Of a DNA stretch of 14,657 nucleotides, positions 1 to 10,844 are shown piece by piece. The notes beneath the pieces are model-generated. The model worked only from the letters and a program-made list of their open reading frames with translations. It searched no databases and was not told the DNA's origin. Position 1 is the first letter of the stretch. Every line of letters starts with the position of its first letter. This DNA is from a virus: UHGV virus genome UHGV-0107399, one strand, 5' to 3'. Both the position numbers and the translations under genes were made by a program.

Positions 1-669
1 ATGATTGGCTTCTGCCAATTGTGCAGCCCATTCAAGGCCGTCTTTGTGTCCTTGCAGATAGTCCAACGGCAACTCATCACGATTACTTACGGGTTCGATT
101 TGTTCGGAATTACCGGACAACTGCATGGTACCTTCATTGGTGAGGGTACCATCTGCACCCTGAAGCATGGCTGCCCGGCACTCATCAACAGCCTGACACA
201 GCTTGGCGCGGTGATGTCCAGCCATAGTCCCTTTGTTCCAGTCATGCCCCATTGTCATGCCGTAAGCATGGTGGAGAAGGCGCTTGAAACACTCAGGCAC
301 AGCTACCGGCGCTGGAGGGGCGGTGTAGAGCGGCATTACCTCAATATTGAAGATATCCCCCTCGCTTGGACACGCCTCTGCGCTACCGTAAACCCAAGGG
401 TGAACGACTCCGTTACGCTTGTTGATTAATCTGTGCGCCCACGCCACAGGCTCCGCTTCGAGCGATGCCAGCAGCGCCAGCACGGTGGCGGGGTTGGCTG
501 CGGCGATAAATGCAGCATCACGCGCTTCGTTTTCACTGAATACCATGGCTATTTGCTCATGGTTCACGCCGTCAGTGGAGTAAATCTCATCGTCGAACTC
601 AACAGCCCACCGGCCTTTCGTCGCCTTCTCCGCTGCTTCCCGTAATCCACGTTTGTCGATGTTGCTCAT
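1..669 (-). CDS. Hypothetical phage protein, partial (start at 669, runs off window at 1); possibly Ead/Ea22-like
   Basis: Hand translation of the minus strand from ATG 667-669 gives MSNIDKRGLREAAEKATKGRWAVEFDDEIYSTDGVNHEQ... with no stop through position 1. AAGGAGG Shine-Dalgarno lies just upstream and the ATG overlaps the TGA stop of the upstream gene (ATGA at 666-669). The Ead/Ea22 resemblance is from memory only. Not in the supplied ORF track, presumably because it lacks a stop inside the window. Confidence 0.5.
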   Translation of the reverse strand, partial: MSNIDKRGLREAAEKATKGRWAVEFDDEIYSTDGVNHEQIAMVFSENEARDAAFIAAANPATVLALLASLEAEPVAWAHRLINKRNGVVHPWVYGSAEACPSEGDIFNIEVMPLYTAPPAPVAVPECFKRLLHHAYGMTMGHDWNKGTMAGHHRAKLCQAVDECRAAMLQGADGTLTNEGTMQLSGNSEQIEPVSNRDELPLDYLQGHKDGLEWAAQLAEANH

Positions 670-1148: not shown

Positions 1149-1444
1149 ACCCCTGCCCTCTCCCAAACCATCAATACTCGCTTCATCGCAGCGCTGTTGC
1201 GGCACTCCTGAAATATTCCGTTGGTGCAGCTGCGCGCGGTGCCATCCTGCTCTTCCGGCGTCGCCAGGCGATAAGTCACCGTTCGCCAGACCTTGCTCAC
1301 GCGGACAATCTTGCGGGACCGTTCCAGATCGATAGCGTTCTTCGTGATGCAGTTGATCGTCATACCGCATTCTGTGGCCACATCCTTCGCGGTGAAGGTC
1401 CGGTGCGTTTCGAGATAACGCAGAATTGCCTGTTTGCCTTTCAT
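1145..1444 (-). CDS. Hypothetical protein (99 aa), possible helix-turn-helix DNA-binding protein
   Basis: In-frame part of ORF 1145..1546(-), starting at the Met of MKGKQAILRYLETHRTFTAKDVATECGMT. Its start codon overlaps the stop of the DnaB-like gene at 1444-1446. The HTH call is a weak pattern guess. Confidence 0.5.
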   Translation of the reverse strand: MKGKQAILRYLETHRTFTAKDVATECGMTINCITKNAIDLERSRKIVRVSKVWRTVTYRLATPEEQDGTARSCTNGIFQECRNSAAMKRVLMVWERAGV

Positions 1445-2877
1445 CAGAAGCCCCCTTTCTTTTTCGGCTGCTGCTCGCGCCCGCGGCGTTCTGCGGCGGC
1501 GGCCTGCTGGTCTGTGTCGTAAATTGCCCCGTTGATCTGATTGCAATAAACCGTTCCGGTACTGCCGTGGCGGTTGAGTCGCAGGATTAACTCGGTTTCT
1601 CCTGGCGGCACGCTGTCATCGAAAGCACCTTCCCGGTGGATGCCAACCCAGTAGTCGCAGTCCTGCTCAATCTGTCCTGTGTCGCGGGAATCGCTCGGCA
1701 ACGGGCGTTTATTCACTCGCTTCTCAAGTTCACGGTTTAGCTGAGTCAGCAGCACGACGACGCAGCCAAGCTCTTTGGCGAGGTTCTTCAACCCTTTGGT
1801 GATCATCCCGTAGGCCAGGTCATTACGGTCGGCTTTTTCGGCTGTCATCAGCGTCAGGTAGTCAACCAGGATCATGCCTACGCAGCCCTTCTCGCGTTTG
1901 ATTCGGCGGCTTTCGCTAACGATGTGCGCCAGTGACAGTCCCGGAGTGTCGTCGATGTACAGCATGTCGATTTCACTCAGCCGGCCAGCTGTAGCGATCG
2001 CCTTCTTAAAGTCTCCGTCGTAGTCGCCCTGGTACTGGTCATCGGCGTCATCCGTGGCGGGCATGTAAAAAATGCTCGGATTTACGCCGGACTTCTGACC
2101 AACCAGTTTTTCGAGGATCTGGTCGCTCGGCATTTCAAGGCTGAACATCAGCGCTGGCTTTTTCTCACGAACCGCGCAGTTGATCGCCATCTGCCCGTAT
2201 AGGGTTGTCTTGCCCATCTTTGGCCTTGCGCCAATCACGAACAGAGAGCCTTTAACCAGACCTTTCGGCGCCAGCAGTCGGTCGAGTGACGGGATTCCGG
2301 TACTCATTCCGCGCTGTTCGCCTGAAGGGTCAAATCGCTTCTCCAGATCTGCCACCCAGTCATCCATAACCTCGCCGAACGACCGCAAACCACGGCGACT
2401 TCCGGTTTTTGAATGGTCTGCGAGCTGGGTGAAAATACCCTGAATGGCCTCGTACTTCTGCGTGGCGCTCATGCCGTTACGGGAATACAGCAGCTCAGTA
2501 GCTTCGGTCAGACGGTTGATACCGTAGCGCTCCATTGCGGCTTCCCGGACTGATGCTGCGTATGCCACGATGTTCGCAGCGCTTGGAGTGTTCTTGGCGA
2601 TCTCCGCCAGGTAAGCAAAGCCACCTACCTGCTCCGCGAGCCCTTTGCCTTCAAGCGCGTCGAACAATGTCAGACCATCGACTGGCTTGTTGTCGCGGAA
2701 CATCTGGCGCATCTCGGCAAAGATCAGCTGGTGAGGTCGGCTGTAGAACGACTCAGGCTTGAGCATCGCCAGAACCTTCTGGACTCGCTCGCTGTTGTCA
2801 TCATCCAGCAGCAGGCCACCGATAACGCTCTGCTCTGCTTCGAGGTTTTGCGGTACAGCCATGAATTCAGCGGTCAT
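1444..2877 (-). CDS. Replicative DNA helicase, DnaB family (phage-encoded, P22 gp12-like)
   Basis: ORF 1444..2901(-). N-terminus PQNLEAEQSVIGGLLLD and Walker A GARPKMGKTTL are typical of DnaB-family helicases. Start chosen at ATG 2875-2877 (MTAEF...), preceded by GAGGGGG at good spacing; the track start at 2901 is a TTG. Confidence 0.9.
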   Translation of the reverse strand: MTAEFMAVPQNLEAEQSVIGGLLLDDDNSERVQKVLAMLKPESFYSRPHQLIFAEMRQMFRDNKPVDGLTLFDALEGKGLAEQVGGFAYLAEIAKNTPSAANIVAYAASVREAAMERYGINRLTEATELLYSRNGMSATQKYEAIQGIFTQLADHSKTGSRRGLRSFGEVMDDWVADLEKRFDPSGEQRGMSTGIPSLDRLLAPKGLVKGSLFVIGARPKMGKTTLYGQMAINCAVREKKPALMFSLEMPSDQILEKLVGQKSGVNPSIFYMPATDDADDQYQGDYDGDFKKAIATAGRLSEIDMLYIDDTPGLSLAHIVSESRRIKREKGCVGMILVDYLTLMTAEKADRNDLAYGMITKGLKNLAKELGCVVVLLTQLNRELEKRVNKRPLPSDSRDTGQIEQDCDYWVGIHREGAFDDSVPPGETELILRLNRHGSTGTVYCNQINGAIYDTDQQAAAAERRGREQQPKKKGGF

Positions 2878-3766
2878 CACGATCCCCCTCGCGCACTTCA
2901 ATGTAGAGCTTTTCGGTCAGGAACTTATCGAATTTCATGCGGCGCCAGGTCTTCCCGGATTTCTGGTCTGGTCGGTCTTCAAGCATCCATCGGCAGTTCT
3001 GAGCGATGTAGCGCAGATAACTTCTGAAACCGTCCATATCCATCGGCTTGCCGTCCAGGTTGCGGGCGATCTTGTTAGCCTTACCCCAGAAGGTGCGGAT
3101 CAGATTGCGTCGCTCATCAGTGAGGCATCTCCATCCCCGTGCTTCAGGCAGTTCGTCTTTCAGGCATTGCCATACTTCATCGCATGACAAACGAGACTTT
3201 TTCTCTTCAGCGGGTTTCTGGTCATTTGCGACATACTTACTACCGTTAGGTAGTAAGTTATTTAATATATTGTTATCTGTGGACACTGGCTGGACATCGG
3301 CTGGACACTCCACCTCCACAGGCATTGGTACGACTGCGTTTGGGCTGGACACCGGCTGGACATCGGCTGGACAAAAATTTGACTGATATTCGTCATATTT
3401 GACCACTTTTAGAACAGTAAAACGGTTGTTCGATTTGGTGGTGATCATGCCCAGATTCTGGAATTTACGGAGCAGTGATTTAACGCGATCAGCGGTCAAA
3501 CCCGTTTCCATTGCCAGCGTGTTTCGCCCGGTAATGAACTCTCCGCGTTCGCAGATCACATCGCCGACATCAGTCGATACCAGTGTCTGTTCGTGATTAG
3601 CACGCAGGAGCAGGTGAACCCATAAATGAGCCGCCTCAGCGTCCTTGTAGAACGGCACATCCATAATTTTACGGTGCAGCAAGGCAAACCCCTTACCGTC
3701 ATTCGTGCGCGGTTTCTGGAGCCTTCTGGCCTCTCTGGCTTCGGCTAAATTGGATACGTTACCCAC
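2867..3766 (-). CDS. Replication initiator, lambda O / P22 gp18-like (assigned by position and internal iterons)
   Basis: ORF 2867..3772(-). Start chosen at GTG 3764-3766, with AAGGAG 7 nt upstream; the track start is a TTG directly abutting the SD. The gene sits between the cII-like gene and the DnaB-like helicase, and its stop overlaps the helicase start. The middle of the gene holds phased 11-bp direct repeats that encode the CPADVQPVS peptide repeats. Confidence 0.6.
   Translation of the reverse strand: MGNVSNLAEAREARRLQKPRTNDGKGFALLHRKIMDVPFYKDAEAAHLWVHLLLRANHEQTLVSTDVGDVICERGEFITGRNTLAMETGLTADRVKSLLRKFQNLGMITTKSNNRFTVLKVVKYDEYQSNFCPADVQPVSSPNAVVPMPVEVECPADVQPVSTDNNILNNLLPNGSKYVANDQKPAEEKKSRLSCDEVWQCLKDELPEARGWRCLTDERRNLIRTFWGKANKIARNLDGKPMDMDGFRSYLRYIAQNCRWMLEDRPDQKSGKTWRRMKFDKFLTEKLYIEVREGDRDDR
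3277..3378. repeat. Six phased 11-bp direct repeats (TGGACA core) inside the O-like gene, followed by an AT-rich stretch; candidate origin iterons
   Basis: TGGACA starts at 3280, 3291, 3302, 3346, 3357 and 3368, all offset by multiples of 11 bp (two triplets 44 bp apart). An AT-rich segment follows at 3371-3420. In lambda the origin iterons lie inside gene O. Confidence 0.55.
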
Positions 3767-3905
3767 GGCCAATCTCCTTACGTTTCAGTTCTTCAAGAAT
3801 GGCGCGCATCTTCTCTGCCACAATCGGGTTAACCGAGCGGATGAAGCGATCGCGGGTTATGTTTTTATGTACAGCGGTATGGTAATAGCGTGGATTTTTT
3901 GCCAT
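3759..3905 (-). CDS. Small hypothetical protein (48 aa)
   Basis: Internal start of ORF 3759..3989(-): ATG 3903-3905 (MAKNPRYYHT...) preceded by AGGAGG. Its 3' end overlaps the O-like start. Function unknown. Confidence 0.4.
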   Translation of the reverse strand: MAKNPRYYHTAVHKNITRDRFIRSVNPIVAEKMRAILEELKRKEIGRG

Positions 3906-3985
3906 TATTCCTCCTGCAACTACTCTCTTTTTTGCACCTGAAAGCCGTTGGTGTTCCAGCACCGCGGCTTTTCCCCTTTCTACGT

Positions 3986-4207
3986 TCATGCTTCAAAATC
4001 TCCCTTCACCCCATCCCGGTTCGAAATCAGGATGGCCAGCAGCAGCGACATGTTCGGTACCAGGTTTTCCCGCCACCGGCTTACGGTTGATTTATTCACG
4101 CCAGCTACTTCGGCGATCCTGGTTGTCCCAAGATCTGCGATTTGCCGCTGCACCCAGCTCTCAATTCGTCGTGCCTCCGCTTTGTTGCGTGTCGTTAAGG
4201 TCTCCAT
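3986..4207 (-). CDS. cII: CII-like transcriptional activator
   Basis: AEARRIESWVQRQIADLGTTRIAEVAGVNKSTVSRWRENLVPNMSLLLAILI aligns by eye with lambda CII (NEALRIESALLNKIAMLGTEKTAEAVGVDKSQISRWKRDWIPKFSMLLAVLEW). GAGGAA lies upstream of the ATG, and the gene sits immediately downstream of the cro-like gene. Confidence 0.8.
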   Translation of the reverse strand: METLTTRNKAEARRIESWVQRQIADLGTTRIAEVAGVNKSTVSRWRENLVPNMSLLLAILISNRDGVKGDFEA

Positions 4208-4234
4208 TTGCGATACTTCCTCTGATTTAATTGG

Positions 4235-4468
4235 TTATGCCGCGGTATTTCGCGGCGAGGCAAAAACCAGGCTCTCTTTGAGCACCGGATCCTGGCGGTG
4301 AAATTTTTTTGTGGCATCTTCGATAGCCGATGCCATTTCTGGTGATGCGCGACGATTTCCGTAAGCGATCTGGTCCAGATAACCTGGCGTTGTGTTTGCC
4401 AGTTTTGCGAGCTGCGCCCATTCGTCTGTAGTGGCGCCCTTACGCCAGCGATGCAGTTCAGTACTCAT
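4235..4468 (-). CDS. Cro-like HTH regulator (77 aa)
   Basis: First gene of the minus-strand operon, divergent from the cI-like repressor across an operator-rich spacer. GGAGA lies 5 nt upstream of ATG 4466-4468. The HTH-like segment is TDEWAQLAKLANTTPGYLDQIAYG. Called by position and size, not by recognised sequence identity. Confidence 0.6.
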   Translation of the reverse strand: MSTELHRWRKGATTDEWAQLAKLANTTPGYLDQIAYGNRRASPEMASAIEDATKKFHRQDPVLKESLVFASPRNTAA

Positions 4469-4584
4469 TGGTGTCTCCGGTTGAGTCGTTTGATTTGGAG
4501 TTTAGCGTTATGCTAAATACTACGCAAGCAACATTTAGCAATTTGCACATTTATCATTTTGCTAAAAGCAGTAACAATGCAGGG
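4469..4584. promoter_or_regulatory. OR-like operator/promoter region between the divergent cro-like and cI-like genes
   Basis: A perfect palindrome TTTAGCGTTATGCTAAA (4501-4517), plus two degenerate copies of the same ATTTAGC-N5-GCTAAAT pattern at about 4533-4551 and 4549-4567. Three sites between divergent repressor genes is the lambda OR1-3 arrangement. Confidence 0.6.
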
Positions 4585-5262
4585 ATGGAAAATAAAGAAA
4601 TCAGAAAAGCCAACCTGGAAGCGCTGTATGAGAAGCGCCAGCACGAGTCTGGAATGACAAAGGCGCAGTTCGCCGAGCTCATCGAGACAAGTCCGGCTGC
4701 GCTTAGCCAGCTGCTGGGACCAAACCCTCATCGCAATATCGGCGATAAGATGGCTCGCAAAATTGAAAGTGCGCTTGATCTGCCTTTTGGTTGGATGGAT
4801 GTTTTACACACCAGTGAAGAACCTTCGAACGTTGCATTTCGAGGACTGAACGAGACAAAAGGAAGTTATCCTGTAATCAGCTGGGTAAGCGCGGGGCAAT
4901 GGATGGAAGCTGTAGAACCTTATCACCGAAGAGCGATAGATCGCTGGTATGACACGACTGTTGACTGCTCAGAAGATTCATTCTGGCTTGACGTTAAAGG
5001 GGATTCTATGACCTCCCCGGCCGGGCTGAGCATACCAGAGGGGGCAGCGATACTTGTTGATCCTGAAGTCGAACCGCGCAACGGGAAGCTGGTTGTCGCG
5101 AAGCTTGAAGGCGATAACGAAGCGACCTTTAAGAAGCTTGTAATCGATGCCGGCAGACGCTTCCTTAAGCCTCTTAACCCCGCATATCCAATGATAGAGG
5201 TTAACGGCAACTGCAAAATTATCGGCGTTGTGGTTGATGCCAAGATACTGAACATCCCATAA
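4585..5262 (+). CDS. cI: CI-like prophage repressor (N-terminal HTH, C-terminal LexA/S24-type autocleavage domain)
   Basis: The C-terminal half (WVSAGQWMEA...FWLDVKGDSMTSPAGLSIPEGAAILVDPEVEPRNGKLVVAKLEGDNEATFKKLVIDAGRRFLKPLNPAYPMIE) aligns by eye with the lambda CI C-terminus, including the Ser (GDSM) and Lys (FKKL) of the catalytic dyad. Start chosen at ATG 4585 (MENKEIRK...) by analogy with the lambda CI N-terminus; the track ORF begins at 4468, and 4510 is another candidate. Confidence 0.85.
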   Translation: MENKEIRKANLEALYEKRQHESGMTKAQFAELIETSPAALSQLLGPNPHRNIGDKMARKIESALDLPFGWMDVLHTSEEPSNVAFRGLNETKGSYPVISWVSAGQWMEAVEPYHRRAIDRWYDTTVDCSEDSFWLDVKGDSMTSPAGLSIPEGAAILVDPEVEPRNGKLVVAKLEGDNEATFKKLVIDAGRRFLKPLNPAYPMIEVNGNCKIIGVVVDAKILNIP

Positions 5263-7794: not shown

Positions 7795-7934
7795 GCGAAA
7801 GCCCACCGAAGTGGGCCCGCCATGTCCGGCCTCACCGACCAAAGTTACACCGGAAACAACATTAAAACCAAAGTTAACCCAATGGGCGCTATCAATGGTC
7901 CGGGGATTCTAACACCCAAAAATGAGGATCTCAC

Positions 7935-10844
7935 ATGGAATTTTTCCATCTGATAAAAGCCAGTCAGAAGTCTGGCAAGAAAGATGCAGTGATTTGGTTC
8001 ACTGCGAAAAGTGTAGCGCGCGCCAATCTCCAACTCGATGTGGCACTGGAAGAAGCCGGAATTGAAGAAACTGGCCGCGGTAAAGATTATGCCAAACCAA
8101 TCCGCACCGATTTCCCGGTATATGACGACCTGCCGGAAGAAGGCGCAGTGGATTACACCTGGTGCGAACGCTACGAACTGCAGAACGATGACCGCACCTG
8201 GCTGCCAAAAGTCACAGCTGAAAACTCTGACGAGAAAACGGCTCAGACCGTTGATAGTCACATAACTACTGAGTCAACGCTGTCAGAAACCGCTGGCATC
8301 ACGCTGGACGAACACGACGACGACTCAACCCTCTACCCGGTAGTGCAGATGCCGTTTCGTAAGCAACTGCTTTCCCAGTTCACCGCCGACGAACTGCGCC
8401 ACCACGTAACCCACGAAGAGTACGAAGCTATCGGCGCGCTGGAGATGGACACTGATAACAGTTACGTCCAGAACTTGCTGTTAGCTGCTGAGAACTGCCC
8501 GGAAGTGAAGGGTTACGACACCAAAGACCTGTGGCGCTACACCGATGCCATTCGCAAAGTGTTCAGCCAGGACAAGCGTCACGAACTCGCGCTGGTACTC
8601 CGTTTCACCAGAATGTGGGCGGCGACTGATTACATTGACCGTGGCATCCTGGCGCGTGAATGGGCCGCCGGTAATCGCATCAGTAGTGTGCAGCGTACTG
8701 ATTCCGGCACTAATGCCGACGGCGGTTACGTCACTGACCGTGGACCTGACGCACACCACACACTGGACACTCTCGATTTAGAGATTGCGTGTGCCCTTCT
8801 GCCTATGGACTTCAACCACTTCGAGATCCCGGGCAGCATTCTTCGTCGCGCTAAAGAAATCGTGACCAAAAAAGAAGAACCATGGAAATCATGGAGCAAC
8901 ATCCTGCGCAATCAGCCAGGCGTTCTGGGTGTTAACCGCACGGCTATTTTTAACCTGGTACGTATCGCACCGGAAAATATTCATTTAACCCCTGTCGCTC
9001 ACCTGGAATTTGTTAACCAGACCATGACTGCTGAATTCAACTCTGCGGTTGAGTTATTGCCGTTGCATGAAGCTGAAGTAGCAACTCAGGAAATTCACCA
9101 ACCTGAAAGTAAGGAGTCTCCGCGCAAATCCTTCTGCACTCACGAAGAGAACCTGCAACGCGTGCGTGAAGAAGGAGCACGCCGCCGCGCAGAGGAAGCG
9201 GCAGCACAACCGCAGAAAGTCGAACAAGAACTGGTTAAAAATGTCGGCAACGGAATATTCGACGTTACGGCTTTGCTGCAGAACTCAGCAACTCATGGCA
9301 CGAAAAAGGCTACGGAGACCACCAGCAATGTGCAGGTTCAAGAAACTGTCAGTGATGAAAAACAAGCTGGTGATGAAGTACAGCCAGGCGAAAGCAGTCT
9401 GGAGTCTGGTGAAGAGTCAGATACCAGCCAGAAGGACGATGTAGACCAGAATACGGATTCTGTCGCCAAAAATAGCGATTCTGTAAGCCAAACCGAACCA
9501 GTTGCAGCACAAACCGAGCCAGAAGCGCAATCTGACGAACCAGCTGTTGTTTATCCCGCTTATTTCGAGCCAGGCCGCTATGAAGGGCTGCCAAACGAGG
9601 TTTACCACGCCGCCAACGGCATCAGCTCAACCCAGGTGAAAGATGCGCGCGTTTCGCTGATGTACTTCAATGCGCGCCACGTAGAGAAAACCATCGTCAA
9701 AGAGCGCTCAGCGGTGCTGGACATGGGCAACTTGGTGCATGCGCTGGCGTTGCAGCCTGAACTACTGGACGCAGAATTCAGCGTTGAACCGGTGATCCCT
9801 GAAGGCGCATTCACAACGGCCGCGACCCTGCGCGCCTTTATCGATGAGCACAATGCCAGCCTGCCGGCGCTGCTGTCTGCCGACGACATCAAGGTGTTAC
9901 TGGAAGAGTACAACGCCACCCTGCCGCCGCAGGTTCCGCTTGGCGCTAACCTGGAAGAAACGGCACAGAACTATATGGCGCTGCCAGCTGACTTCCAGCG
10001 TATTGATGGTGACCAGAAGCAGACGGCGACGGCAATGAAGGCATGCATTAAAGAGTACAACGCCACCCTGCCGCCGCCGGTTAAAACCAGCGGCAGCCGT
10101 GACGCGCTGCTGGAGCAGTTGGCAATCATCAACCCTGACCTTGTGGCTCAGGAAGCACAGAAACCGGCACCACTGAAAGTGTCCGGTACCAAATCAGACC
10201 TGATTCAGGCCGTGAAGTCTGTTAATCCGGAAGCCGTATTCGCCGACGAGTTGTTGGATGCGTGGCGCGAGAATCCGCATGGGAAAGTGCTGGTCACCCG
10301 CCAGCAGCTGAGCACCGCACTGGCCATTCAGAAAGCCCTGCTAAAGCACCCAACCGCCGGGATGCTGCTTCAGCATCCGAGCCGCGCTGTTGAGGTGAGC
10401 TATTTTGGCTTTGACGACGAAACCGGACTTGAAGTCCGCGTGCGTCCTGACCTTGAGATCGACTTGGACGGGGTACGCATCGGTGCCGACCTTAAAACCA
10501 TCAGCATGTGGAACATTAAGCAGGAAGGTCTGCGCGCCAAACTGCACCGGGAAATCATCGACCGTGACTATCACCTGAGCGCCGCCATGTATTGCGAGAC
10601 CGCGGCACTTGACCAGTTCTTCTGGATTTTCGTCAACAAAGACGAGAACTACCACTGGATCGCCATCATCGAGGCATCCGCTGAACTGCTAGAGCTGGGC
10701 ATGCTCGAGTACCGCAAGGCGATGCGCGCTATCGCTACCGGCTTTGACACTGGCGAATGGCCAGCGCCGATCACCGCTGATTACACCGACGAACTGAACG
10801 ACTTCGACCTGCGCCGCCTTGAAGCGCTGCGTACTCAGGCATAA
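7935..10844 (+). CDS. RecE-like exonuclease (exodeoxyribonuclease VIII-like), 969 aa, with C-terminal PD-(D/E)xK nuclease domain
   Basis: Long ORF directly upstream of the annealase gene. The C-terminal region carries a PD ... D-x-K arrangement (VRPDLEIDLDGVRIGADLKTISMW) typical of the RecE/lambda-Exo/YqaJ nuclease fold. GAGGA lies 6 nt before the ATG. The acidic middle region contains EYNATLPP repeats. Confidence 0.75.
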   Translation: MEFFHLIKASQKSGKKDAVIWFTAKSVARANLQLDVALEEAGIEETGRGKDYAKPIRTDFPVYDDLPEEGAVDYTWCERYELQNDDRTWLPKVTAENSDEKTAQTVDSHITTESTLSETAGITLDEHDDDSTLYPVVQMPFRKQLLSQFTADELRHHVTHEEYEAIGALEMDTDNSYVQNLLLAAENCPEVKGYDTKDLWRYTDAIRKVFSQDKRHELALVLRFTRMWAATDYIDRGILAREWAAGNRISSVQRTDSGTNADGGYVTDRGPDAHHTLDTLDLEIACALLPMDFNHFEIPGSILRRAKEIVTKKEEPWKSWSNILRNQPGVLGVNRTAIFNLVRIAPENIHLTPVAHLEFVNQTMTAEFNSAVELLPLHEAEVATQEIHQPESKESPRKSFCTHEENLQRVREEGARRRAEEAAAQPQKVEQELVKNVGNGIFDVTALLQNSATHGTKKATETTSNVQVQETVSDEKQAGDEVQPGESSLESGEESDTSQKDDVDQNTDSVAKNSDSVSQTEPVAAQTEPEAQSDEPAVVYPAYFEPGRYEGLPNEVYHAANGISSTQVKDARVSLMYFNARHVEKTIVKERSAVLDMGNLVHALALQPELLDAEFSVEPVIPEGAFTTAATLRAFIDEHNASLPALLSADDIKVLLEEYNATLPPQVPLGANLEETAQNYMALPADFQRIDGDQKQTATAMKACIKEYNATLPPPVKTSGSRDALLEQLAIINPDLVAQEAQKPAPLKVSGTKSDLIQAVKSVNPEAVFADELLDAWRENPHGKVLVTRQQLSTALAIQKALLKHPTAGMLLQHPSRAVEVSYFGFDDETGLEVRVRPDLEIDLDGVRIGADLKTISMWNIKQEGLRAKLHREIIDRDYHLSAAMYCETAALDQFFWIFVNKDENYHWIAIIEASAELLELGMLEYRKAMRAIATGFDTGEWPAPITADYTDELNDFDLRRLEALRTQA

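Follow-up and report, generated by a model that had tools for sequence, protein, structure and literature searches.

The gene for an O-like replication initiator in UHGV virus genome UHGV-0107399 contains six phased copies of a short repeat, which raises the question of whether these copies act as DNA, as the origin at which the encoded protein would start replication, or whether they reflect the evolution of the protein or the regulation of its gene. A stretch of 14,657 nucleotides (nt) of this genome, referred to as the window, was analyzed; all positions are those of the window. An earlier sequence-only reading had proposed a phage replication origin inside the O-like gene. This proposal is supported by the rep_origin annotation of phage HK620, by a statement published for phage L (PMC8022706) and by comparison of the gene family. 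As judged from these comparisons, the repeats are quite likely to be the site at which a lambdoid prophage starts theta replication, an origin of the HK022/HK620/L type that lies where the initiator gene encodes a predicted interdomain linker. The design of such origins is already known, and the variant of the repeat unit (iteron) present in the window is common to Enterobacter phage CobraSix and Klebsiella phage Chronis. The gene and the parts of the putative origin are, in gene direction:

2867..3766, minus strand: O-like replication initiator gene, 299 amino acids (aa), GTG start (open reading frame (ORF) and translation)
3374..3766, minus strand: part encoding the N-terminal domain (N-domain, residues 1-131), a predicted winged-helix DNA-binding domain
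3374..3420, minus strand: AT-rich stretch of the sequence-only reading, upstream of the iterons in gene direction, encoding the end of the N-domain (..FTVLKVVKYDEYQSNF)
3343..3373, minus strand: iteron triplet 1, coding strand TGTCCAGCCGA TGTCCAGCCGG TGTCCAGCC; three head-to-tail units of 11 base pairs (bp), the third consisting of the core only
3308..3342, minus strand: inter-triplet spacer of 35 nt, free in sequence and fixed in length
3279..3307, minus strand: iteron triplet 2, coding strand TGTCCAGCCGA TGTCCAGCCAG TGTCCAC
3259..3278, minus strand: AT-rich segment directly past the last iteron, candidate DNA-unwinding element
3235..3258, no strand assigned: perfect palindrome with 10-bp arms and a 4-nt centre, coding strand ACTTACTACC TAAC GGTAGTAAGT

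Phased repeats in the initiator gene and its relatives

A motif search placed the plus-strand TGGACA cores at 3280, 3291, 3302, 3346, 3357 and 3368, which reproduced all six positions and the exact 11-bp phasing described in the sequence-only reading. The 44 bp given there as the separation of the two triplets is the distance from the last unit of one triplet to the first unit of the next, and the start-to-start distance of the triplets is 66 bp (6 x 11). Both repeat tools returned arrays with an 11-bp period (3280-3309 and 3343-3373) as well as a 28-nt block that is present twice at an offset of 66 bp with 96% identity (27/28 nt, triplet 2 versus triplet 1). The units are arranged head to tail and have no dyad symmetry. 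Five exact copies of the 9-mer unit GGCTGGACA were detected within 3288-3373 (86 bp); when one mismatch was allowed, the window contained 12 matches versus 3.0 +/- 1.65 in shuffled sequences, and none of 200 shuffles reached 12. By our own arithmetic, about 0.1 exact copies of a 9-mer are expected by chance per 14.6 kilobases (kb) on both strands. The phased repeats far exceed chance. A lone exact copy of GGCTGGACA at 215-223 (minus strand), approximately 1.2 kb past the end of the helicase gene and without a phased partner, may be a coincidence, given the approximately 0.1 copies expected.

Homologous loci were collected from three sources: annotated phages, viral contigs of IMG/VR and bacterial genomes sampled at one per species. 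Comparison with the O genes of related phages, named in the sequence-only reading as a check, revealed that the repeats are conserved: 130 of 139 fetched loci, together with the window, contain 3+3 units with exact 11-bp spacing and an exact 66-bp triplet offset. The loci with this design provide 114 distinct origin regions and include the plaque-forming phages HK620, HK022, ST64T, CobraSix, Chronis and PA-1 as well as prophages of many Enterobacterales. The layout is kept among proteins with identities down to about 35-40%, and the same repeat register with the 66-bp offset is found in the window, HK620, HK022, ST64T, HK542 and others. At least eight iteron variants were distinguished: TGTCCAGCCGA, TGTCCAACGGA/T, TTACCAGCAGA, TTACCAACAGA, GTGCCAACAGA, AATCCAAAGGA, TTCCCAGAAGA and TGTCCGGAGAA. 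The TGTCCAGCCGA type is that of the window and of many Enterobacter, Kosakonia, Citrobacter and Klebsiella prophages. All variants have CC at unit positions 4-5, and an A follows at position 6 in all but the one from Morganella (TGTCCGGAGAA).

Initiator-helicase modules were also observed on 40-50 kb circular records filed as plasmids, such as NZ_CP044141.1 (E. coli, 50 kb) and CP026278.1 (K. oxytoca, 49 kb). Only a few records of this size carry the module, in addition to two much larger ones, and those of 40-50 kb are filed as non-mobilizable. They look like circular phage genomes or could be phage-plasmids that use such an origin.

More distant homologues of the N-domain were found in Staphylococcus phage phiNM3 (array at L143 1229-1310), in Vibrio phage 1.157.O (L144 1215-1265) and in metagenome-assembled genomes (MAGs) of Bacteroidia, Elusimicrobiales and Spongiibacteraceae (L134-L136), where they are annotated as 'DnaD-like helicase loader' or as hypothetical. 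In their genes, four to seven 11-bp units (for example ATCAACAACAA and GAACAACCAGT) form one contiguous array at the same place, directly past the part for the N-domain; the last unit is truncated in most arrays, and AT-rich DNA with short repeats follows in all. Several finish with ...CAC AAACAA, like the enterobacterial origins. The phiNM3 homologue, with seven 11-bp units followed by AT-rich DNA, exemplifies this likeness, whereas the contiguous arrays of the 'DnaD-like' initiators of Gram-positive phages differ from the split 3+3 array of the window.

As 11 is not a multiple of three, the 11-bp unit is translated in three frames within each triplet (C-P-A-D, then V-Q-P-V, then S-S), and the units therefore do not constitute a peptide repeat. 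The peptide CPADVQPVS, listed as duplicated in the sequence-only reading, is indeed encoded twice on the coding (minus) strand because the 33-bp triplet and the 66-bp offset alone are in frame. Variability was measured on 57 distinct regions of the iteron class found in the window. The minor-allele frequency did not exceed 0.012 at unit positions 1-8 and ranged from 0.04 to 0.10 at positions 9-11. The spacer was the most variable stretch, with values of 0.12-0.14 at all three codon positions and a constant length. Variability tracks the position in the unit, codon position explains little of it, and the same pattern was repeated in two other iteron classes. This distribution of substitutions indicates that selection acts on the iteron DNA rather than on the protein.

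AT-rich flanks and the palindrome

An AT-rich segment at 3371-3420 had been described as following the repeats. Its AT-richness was verified (GC content of 0.33-0.35 versus 0.52 for the window; fifth least stable 50-mer of the window), but its placement had to be revised: as the gene is located on the minus strand, the segment lies upstream of the iterons in gene direction, and it codes for conserved protein. Positions 3374-3420 encode the invariant KYD.YQ end of the N-domain, in which K123, Y124, D125 and Q128 are invariant across the family. A second role of this stretch in unwinding is conceivable. The opposite flank is more AT-rich (3240-3279, GC content of 0.275), and nearest-neighbour stability calculations located both the least stable 30-mer (3246-3275) and the least stable 40-mer (3236-3275) of the whole 14.6-kb window there. 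For the 114 distinct regions, the GC content of the 40 nt past the last iteron averages 0.25, compared with 0.30 on the upstream side and 0.56 between the triplets. By analogy of position and composition, the segment at 3259-3278 would be the counterpart of the AT-rich unwinding region of lambda.

All 114 distinct regions contain an inverted repeat whose arms of 9-10 bp match perfectly and flank a 4-nt centre (T[AG]A[AC]). These palindromes begin 12-24 nt past the last iteron and have at least 12 different arm sequences, a pattern suggesting that the palindrome is conserved as a dyad and not as a sequence. In an alignment of 21 distinct sequences, anchored on the detected repeat, all 10 pairs displayed double compensatory changes and paired cells amounted to 97%, versus 61% in shuffles and 28-46% in slid controls. 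One-sided (G-U) intermediates were absent save for two cells at the outermost pair, which argues for a DNA dyad rather than an RNA helix. In an independent control, a 9-bp stem appeared in only 2 of 2800 shuffled versions of these regions and in none of 456 coding windows of the N-domain. The arms co-segregate neither with the iteron class nor with the type of the C-terminal domain (C-domain). We therefore favour a structure-specific role of the palindrome over a reader that recognizes its sequence.

The initiator, its modules and related systems

The O-like protein is 53% identical to HK620 O over its full length (299 aa, E 2e-113) and 49-52% identical to the homologues of HK022 and ST64T. 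It matches PHROG 345 ('replication initiation O-like', E 3e-68), and its N-domain matches PHROG families labelled 'DnaD-like helicase loader' (E 5e-23 and 5e-15). No Pfam family scored above threshold for the O-like protein, the sub-threshold matches being winged-helix families and Phage_rep_org_N, and a sequence search of the PDB yielded no match at E values up to 1. The DNA of the gene is 98% identical to that of CobraSix, where the product is labelled 'hypothetical protein', and 94% identical to that of Chronis ('putative DNA replication protein'); neither record marks an origin.

An AlphaFold2 model built from a shallow alignment (mean predicted local distance difference test score (pLDDT) of 63.8) contains two folded domains separated by a disordered linker. 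Residues ~33-128 (pLDDT 67-84) have a winged-helix topology with helix 43-55, strands within 61-78, helices 81-88 and 92-104 and a hairpin at 108-121, and the C-domain (192-299, pLDDT 72-89) consists of helices. Nucleotides 3194-3382, precisely the stretch with iterons, spacer, AT-rich segment and palindrome, encode the linker (129-191, pLDDT <35). A Foldseek search of the PDB with the N-domain returned only weak matches (E 0.01-0.05), all of which are winged-helix DNA binders, among them the N-terminal domain of the staphylococcal plasmid initiator RepA (E about 0.04).

The N-domain and the iterons vary together. The identity of N-domains reaches at most 0.68 between iteron classes and is at least 0.73 within the class of the window. 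Residues ~53-131 co-segregate with the iteron type, and a comparison of classes nominated residues 30, 37, 38, 50, 72, 77, 104 and 114 as candidates for co-variation with unit positions 1-3 and 7-9. Several natural mosaics separate the modules. P0014 has window-type sequence in its first 52 residues and again from the palindrome onward, and in between an N-domain core (~53-131) and iteron peptides (PADYQQIT) of the HK022 type. P0037 combines the N-domain and iterons of the window type with a different C-terminal part. In Erwinia phage 59 (L010) and several Pantoea, Lonsdalea and Erwinia prophages (L128, L129, L133), an N-domain of the window family with 11-bp iterons and palindrome is fused, just past the palindrome, to a C-domain 68-70% identical to that of lambda O. 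A lambda-P-like gene comes next in L010, L128 and L129, and the sequence of L133 stops short of the following gene. Downstream of window-type C-domains lies a DnaB-type helicase gene, so that the type of C-domain pairs with the type of partner. Read from their sequences, these mosaics act as swap experiments in which the iterons appear to travel with the N-domain and the C-domain with its partner. A further combination was observed in Pectobacterium phage ZF40, whose gp14 (L011 735-844) has an unrelated N-terminal domain and a homologous C-domain; the gene contains another 44-nt block (CCTGTGCC..GCACAGCC CCTGTGCC), also doubled at a 66-bp offset.

The closest described layouts are those of HK620, HK022 and L. 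The HK620 record (GenBank AF335538) annotates a two-piece rep_origin at 10369..10464 inside gene O that comprises two triplets of 11-bp repeats (TTACCAGCAGA TTACCAGCAAA TTACCAC), the repeats alone being marked as origin. HK620 and HK022 resemble the window in having a homologous initiator, two 11-bp triplets 66 bp apart at the same position in the gene, AT-rich DNA followed by a palindrome with 10-bp arms, and a DnaB-type helicase gene next. They differ in the iteron (TTACCAGCAGA versus TGTCCAGCCGA in the window), which is matched by a different N-domain subtype, and in the palindrome arms (TCTCTAATAC versus ACTTACTACC). For phage L, six 11-bp repeats (TGTCCAACGGA) in gene 18 were described as the likely origin (Zaworski et al., G3 2020/21; PMC8022706), and the same paper, citing Hilliker 1981, states that the L replication region replaces that of P22 only as a whole (PMC8022706). 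The TGTCCA core and the 3+3 layout are common to L and the window, and the units differ at positions 7-9 only (ACG in L versus GCC in the window); the N-domains of the two classes are 52% identical or less. Repeats of the L type also occur in ST64T, SW-70 and HK542. The 66-bp rule, the AT-rich segment and the co-varying palindrome are not part of the phage L paper (PMC8022706). As in these phages, a homologous initiator, six 11-bp repeats directly past the N-domain part and an overlapping DnaB-family helicase gene were found in the window.

In lambda, O binds the iterons, the AT-rich region unwinds and DnaB is loaded there (PMC3349717, PMC7466680). The lambda origin also lies inside the initiator gene, at the boundary of the DNA-binding N-domain and the partner-binding C-domain, and has the same order of iterons (39034-39118), AT-rich region (~40 bp) and palindrome (12-nt arms, 4-nt gap) (PMC3349717, PMC7466680). 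On L140 the lambda parts are located at 735-819 (iterons), ~820-860 (AT-rich region) and 863-890 (palindrome), and the corresponding parts of the window, in gene direction, at 3373-3279, 3278-3259 and 3258-3235. Lambda has four iterons, each about 18-19 bp long and internally dyad-symmetric, whereas the six 11-bp units of the window are head to tail and lack a dyad. The lambda iterons are bound by dimers of O. Lambda relies on the P loader and host DnaB, whereas the phage of the window encodes its own DnaB-type helicase. The description in the sequence-only reading of a lambda paradigm with a different repeat unit and spacing is thus apt: the in-gene order is shared and the iteron design differs. 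Homology to lambda O itself was not detected, as no match to Pfam Phage_rep_O was obtained at E values up to 10 and the family profile scored a probability of 0.1% in hhalign. A C-terminal match to lambda O in a first profile comparison proved to be an artefact of the Erwinia phage 59 chimera in alignment A1; the clean profile A3 gave none.

The N-domain reached 14.4 bits for Pfam Phage_rep_org_N (cut-off 23.3, E 0.038), and its relation to replisome organisers of the SPP1 G38P type may be a distant one. SPP1 oriL lies in the gene for G38P. This origin-binding protein starts theta replication and hands over to the phage helicase (PMC5615212), a division of labour similar to that considered here. 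Iteron plasmid replicons are also comparable in their direct repeats, winged-helix initiator and adjacent AT-rich unwinding element, binding in the window being predicted; the fold match to the winged-helix Rep of staphylococcal RepA_N (PDB 4pt7/4pql) is weak (E about 0.04). Plasmid iterons usually measure about 17-22 bp, roughly two helical turns, in contrast to the single-turn, 11-bp unit within coding sequence in the window. Direct repeats, an adjacent least stable duplex and a predicted winged-helix initiator in cis, the general components of an iteron-type theta replicon, are all present in the window.

The gene set of the window is that of a lambdoid prophage early region. In addition to a divergent cI-type repressor gene (ORF 4468-5262), recE, recT and an integrase gene, it comprises, listed in the transcription direction of the O-like gene:

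4235-4468: cro-like gene, the first in this direction
3986-4207: cII-like gene, next after the cro-like gene
3759-3905, minus strand: small orf48/hkaW-like gene, between the cII-like and O-like genes
1444..2877, minus strand: phage DnaB-family replicative helicase gene, overlapping the end of the initiator gene

The gene that follows the initiator thus encodes a DnaB-family helicase and not a homologue of P. Its product matched Pfam DnaB and DnaB_C and scored 550 bits for NCBIfam TIGR03600 phage_DnaB (cut-off 499); the helicase is the presumed partner of the initiator C-domain.

Several further observations were made in this region. For the repressor ORF, the listed TTG start (4468) probably lies too far upstream, an ATG codon at 4577 or 4585 being the better fit. 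The interval between the cro-like and cI-like genes (4469-4576) contains TTTAGC..GCTAAA dyads (e.g. 4500-4517) and two tandem copies of a 16-bp repeat, ACATTTAGCAATTTGC, at 4531-4562, which are probably operator sites. The orf48/hkaW-like gene matches PHROG 1913, labelled 'tail protein', and the same label is attached to this early gene in several RefSeq phage records; it is probably a propagated misannotation. At 7796-7893 (minus strand), just upstream of the recE-like gene (7935-10844) and overlapping a small ORF, a match to the Rfam family isrB, an Hfq-binding small RNA, was detected with 38.2 bits (gathering score 35).

A candidate initiation mechanism and its alternatives

From co-segregation and fold we infer that the N-terminal winged-helix domain binds the 11-bp units, the core being TGTCCAGC. 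One protomer would occupy each unit, head to tail and one unit per helical turn, so that three protomers would be aligned on one face of the DNA in each triplet. The offset of 66 bp, or six turns, would place the second cluster on the same face; the two clusters could then interact across the spacer and strain the DNA in a manner resembling the lambda O-some. This strain would open the least stable AT-rich segment at 3259-3278, and the palindrome at 3235-3258 may extrude or fold as a hairpin. The C-domain of the initiator would finally bring in the phage-encoded DnaB-type helicase for loading on the opened DNA, a step suggested by the strict pairing of C-domain type with partner type. Neither DnaA boxes (TTATNCACA, one mismatch) nor the IHF consensus were found within 3200-3450, their window-wide counts being at chance level, and the repeat region contained no Rfam family.

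Several points weigh against the assignment of the repeats as an origin and against details of this scheme. A literature search returned no experiment on binding, unwinding or origin activity for origins of this type, and both the HK620 annotation and the statement on phage L are themselves inferences. The structural model stems from a shallow alignment (mean pLDDT 63.8), and its fold matches are weak (E 0.01-0.05). Iteron DNA also codes for protein, and the peptide could cause some of the constraint. Both iteron flanks are AT-rich, so that opening on the other side is also conceivable. In addition, natural initiators of 277 aa exist in which precisely one 66-bp unit (22 aa) is missing and a single triplet is left. 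These variants (P0002, P0006, P0008; L141 4390-4470, a Salmonella contig) keep the AT-rich segment and the palindrome, and in the 20 Salmonella contigs that carry P0008 the neighbouring DnaB-type helicase gene is intact. Initiation may thus not depend strictly on six units and the 66-bp geometry, or the single-triplet prophages may be replication-defective.

The region that contains the repeats encodes a predicted disordered linker, and the natural variants minus one 66-bp unit demonstrate that unequal recombination takes place here. The repeats might accordingly be a by-product of protein evolution, in which slippage or unequal crossing-over duplicated the linker peptide CPADVQPVS and the DNA has no role in cis. 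We regard this explanation as very improbable. The unit is read in three frames within each triplet; conservation follows the 11-bp unit and not the codon, with cores far more conserved than the neighbouring linker codons; the exact 11-bp and 66-bp spacing is maintained in 130 loci whose proteins are down to about 35-40% identical; and the iteron sequence changes in concert across its six copies, together with the type of N-domain. A different possibility is that the units are bound by protein for the purpose of regulation, as an autoregulatory roadblock, in handcuffing and incompatibility, or as a crossover site, while the true origin is located elsewhere. Iteron plasmids use one set of sites for initiation as well as for negative control, and mosaic junctions adjoin the repeats; both observations are compatible with such a function. 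This explanation is nevertheless improbable, as iterons, least stable duplex and palindrome are conserved as a set in the order of the lambda origin, for which function is proven (PMC3349717, PMC7466680), and as the exchange of the L replication region for that of P22 only as a whole suggests an origin within it (PMC8022706). Moreover, the repeat tools found no other repeat cluster near the replication genes.

For the palindrome alone, an RNA element has to be considered, either an intrinsic terminator for antisense transcription of the O-like gene or a hairpin in mRNA, in which case it would not be part of the origin. A consensus scan flagged the plus strand of 3235-3258 followed by TATTTAATAT (3235-3268) as resembling an intrinsic terminator. 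Yet the variable pairs change on both sides across the 21 sequences, the pattern of a DNA dyad; most stems of the family are very AT-rich (e.g. TCTCTAATAC) and would make poor terminators; no promoter-like site was detected in 2800-4500; and the lambda origin has an equivalent palindrome. An RNA element is therefore very improbable, and a palindrome that belongs to the origin is preferred.

Read as an origin of the HK022/HK620/L type, the repeats point to the probable origin of a replication module found very often in prophages of Enterobacter, Klebsiella, Salmonella and Citrobacter and whose origin is unannotated in the closest sequenced phages, CobraSix and Chronis. The present analysis contributes a set of rules for the family, evidence that selection acts on the DNA, a revised position of the AT-rich element and the finding of a co-varying palindrome. 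The rules are testable: an 8-bp core in an 11-bp unit, a 3+3 arrangement with a 66-bp offset, an AT-rich segment of ~20 bp and a dyad with 9-10-bp arms and a 4-nt centre. The iteron variants, at least eight of which are paired with N-domain subtypes, provide a resource for deriving the rules by which winged-helix domains read their sites or for building mutually compatible phage-derived replicons. More tentatively, and with more doubt than confidence, the 11-bp array with one unit per turn could represent the ancestral reading mode of a widespread winged-helix domain, and the palindrome a structure-specific signal for helicase loading. If so, the DNA would carry monomers on one of its faces, arranged head to tail, in contrast to the lambda dimers on their dyad sites, and this mode would span phages of Enterobacterales, Vibrio and Staphylococcus as well as Bacteroidia and Elusimicrobiales MAGs. 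The hairpin or cruciform palindrome, which is present in lambda too, would then be a largely overlooked component of such origins. The lambda paradigm is thereby extended and not overturned.

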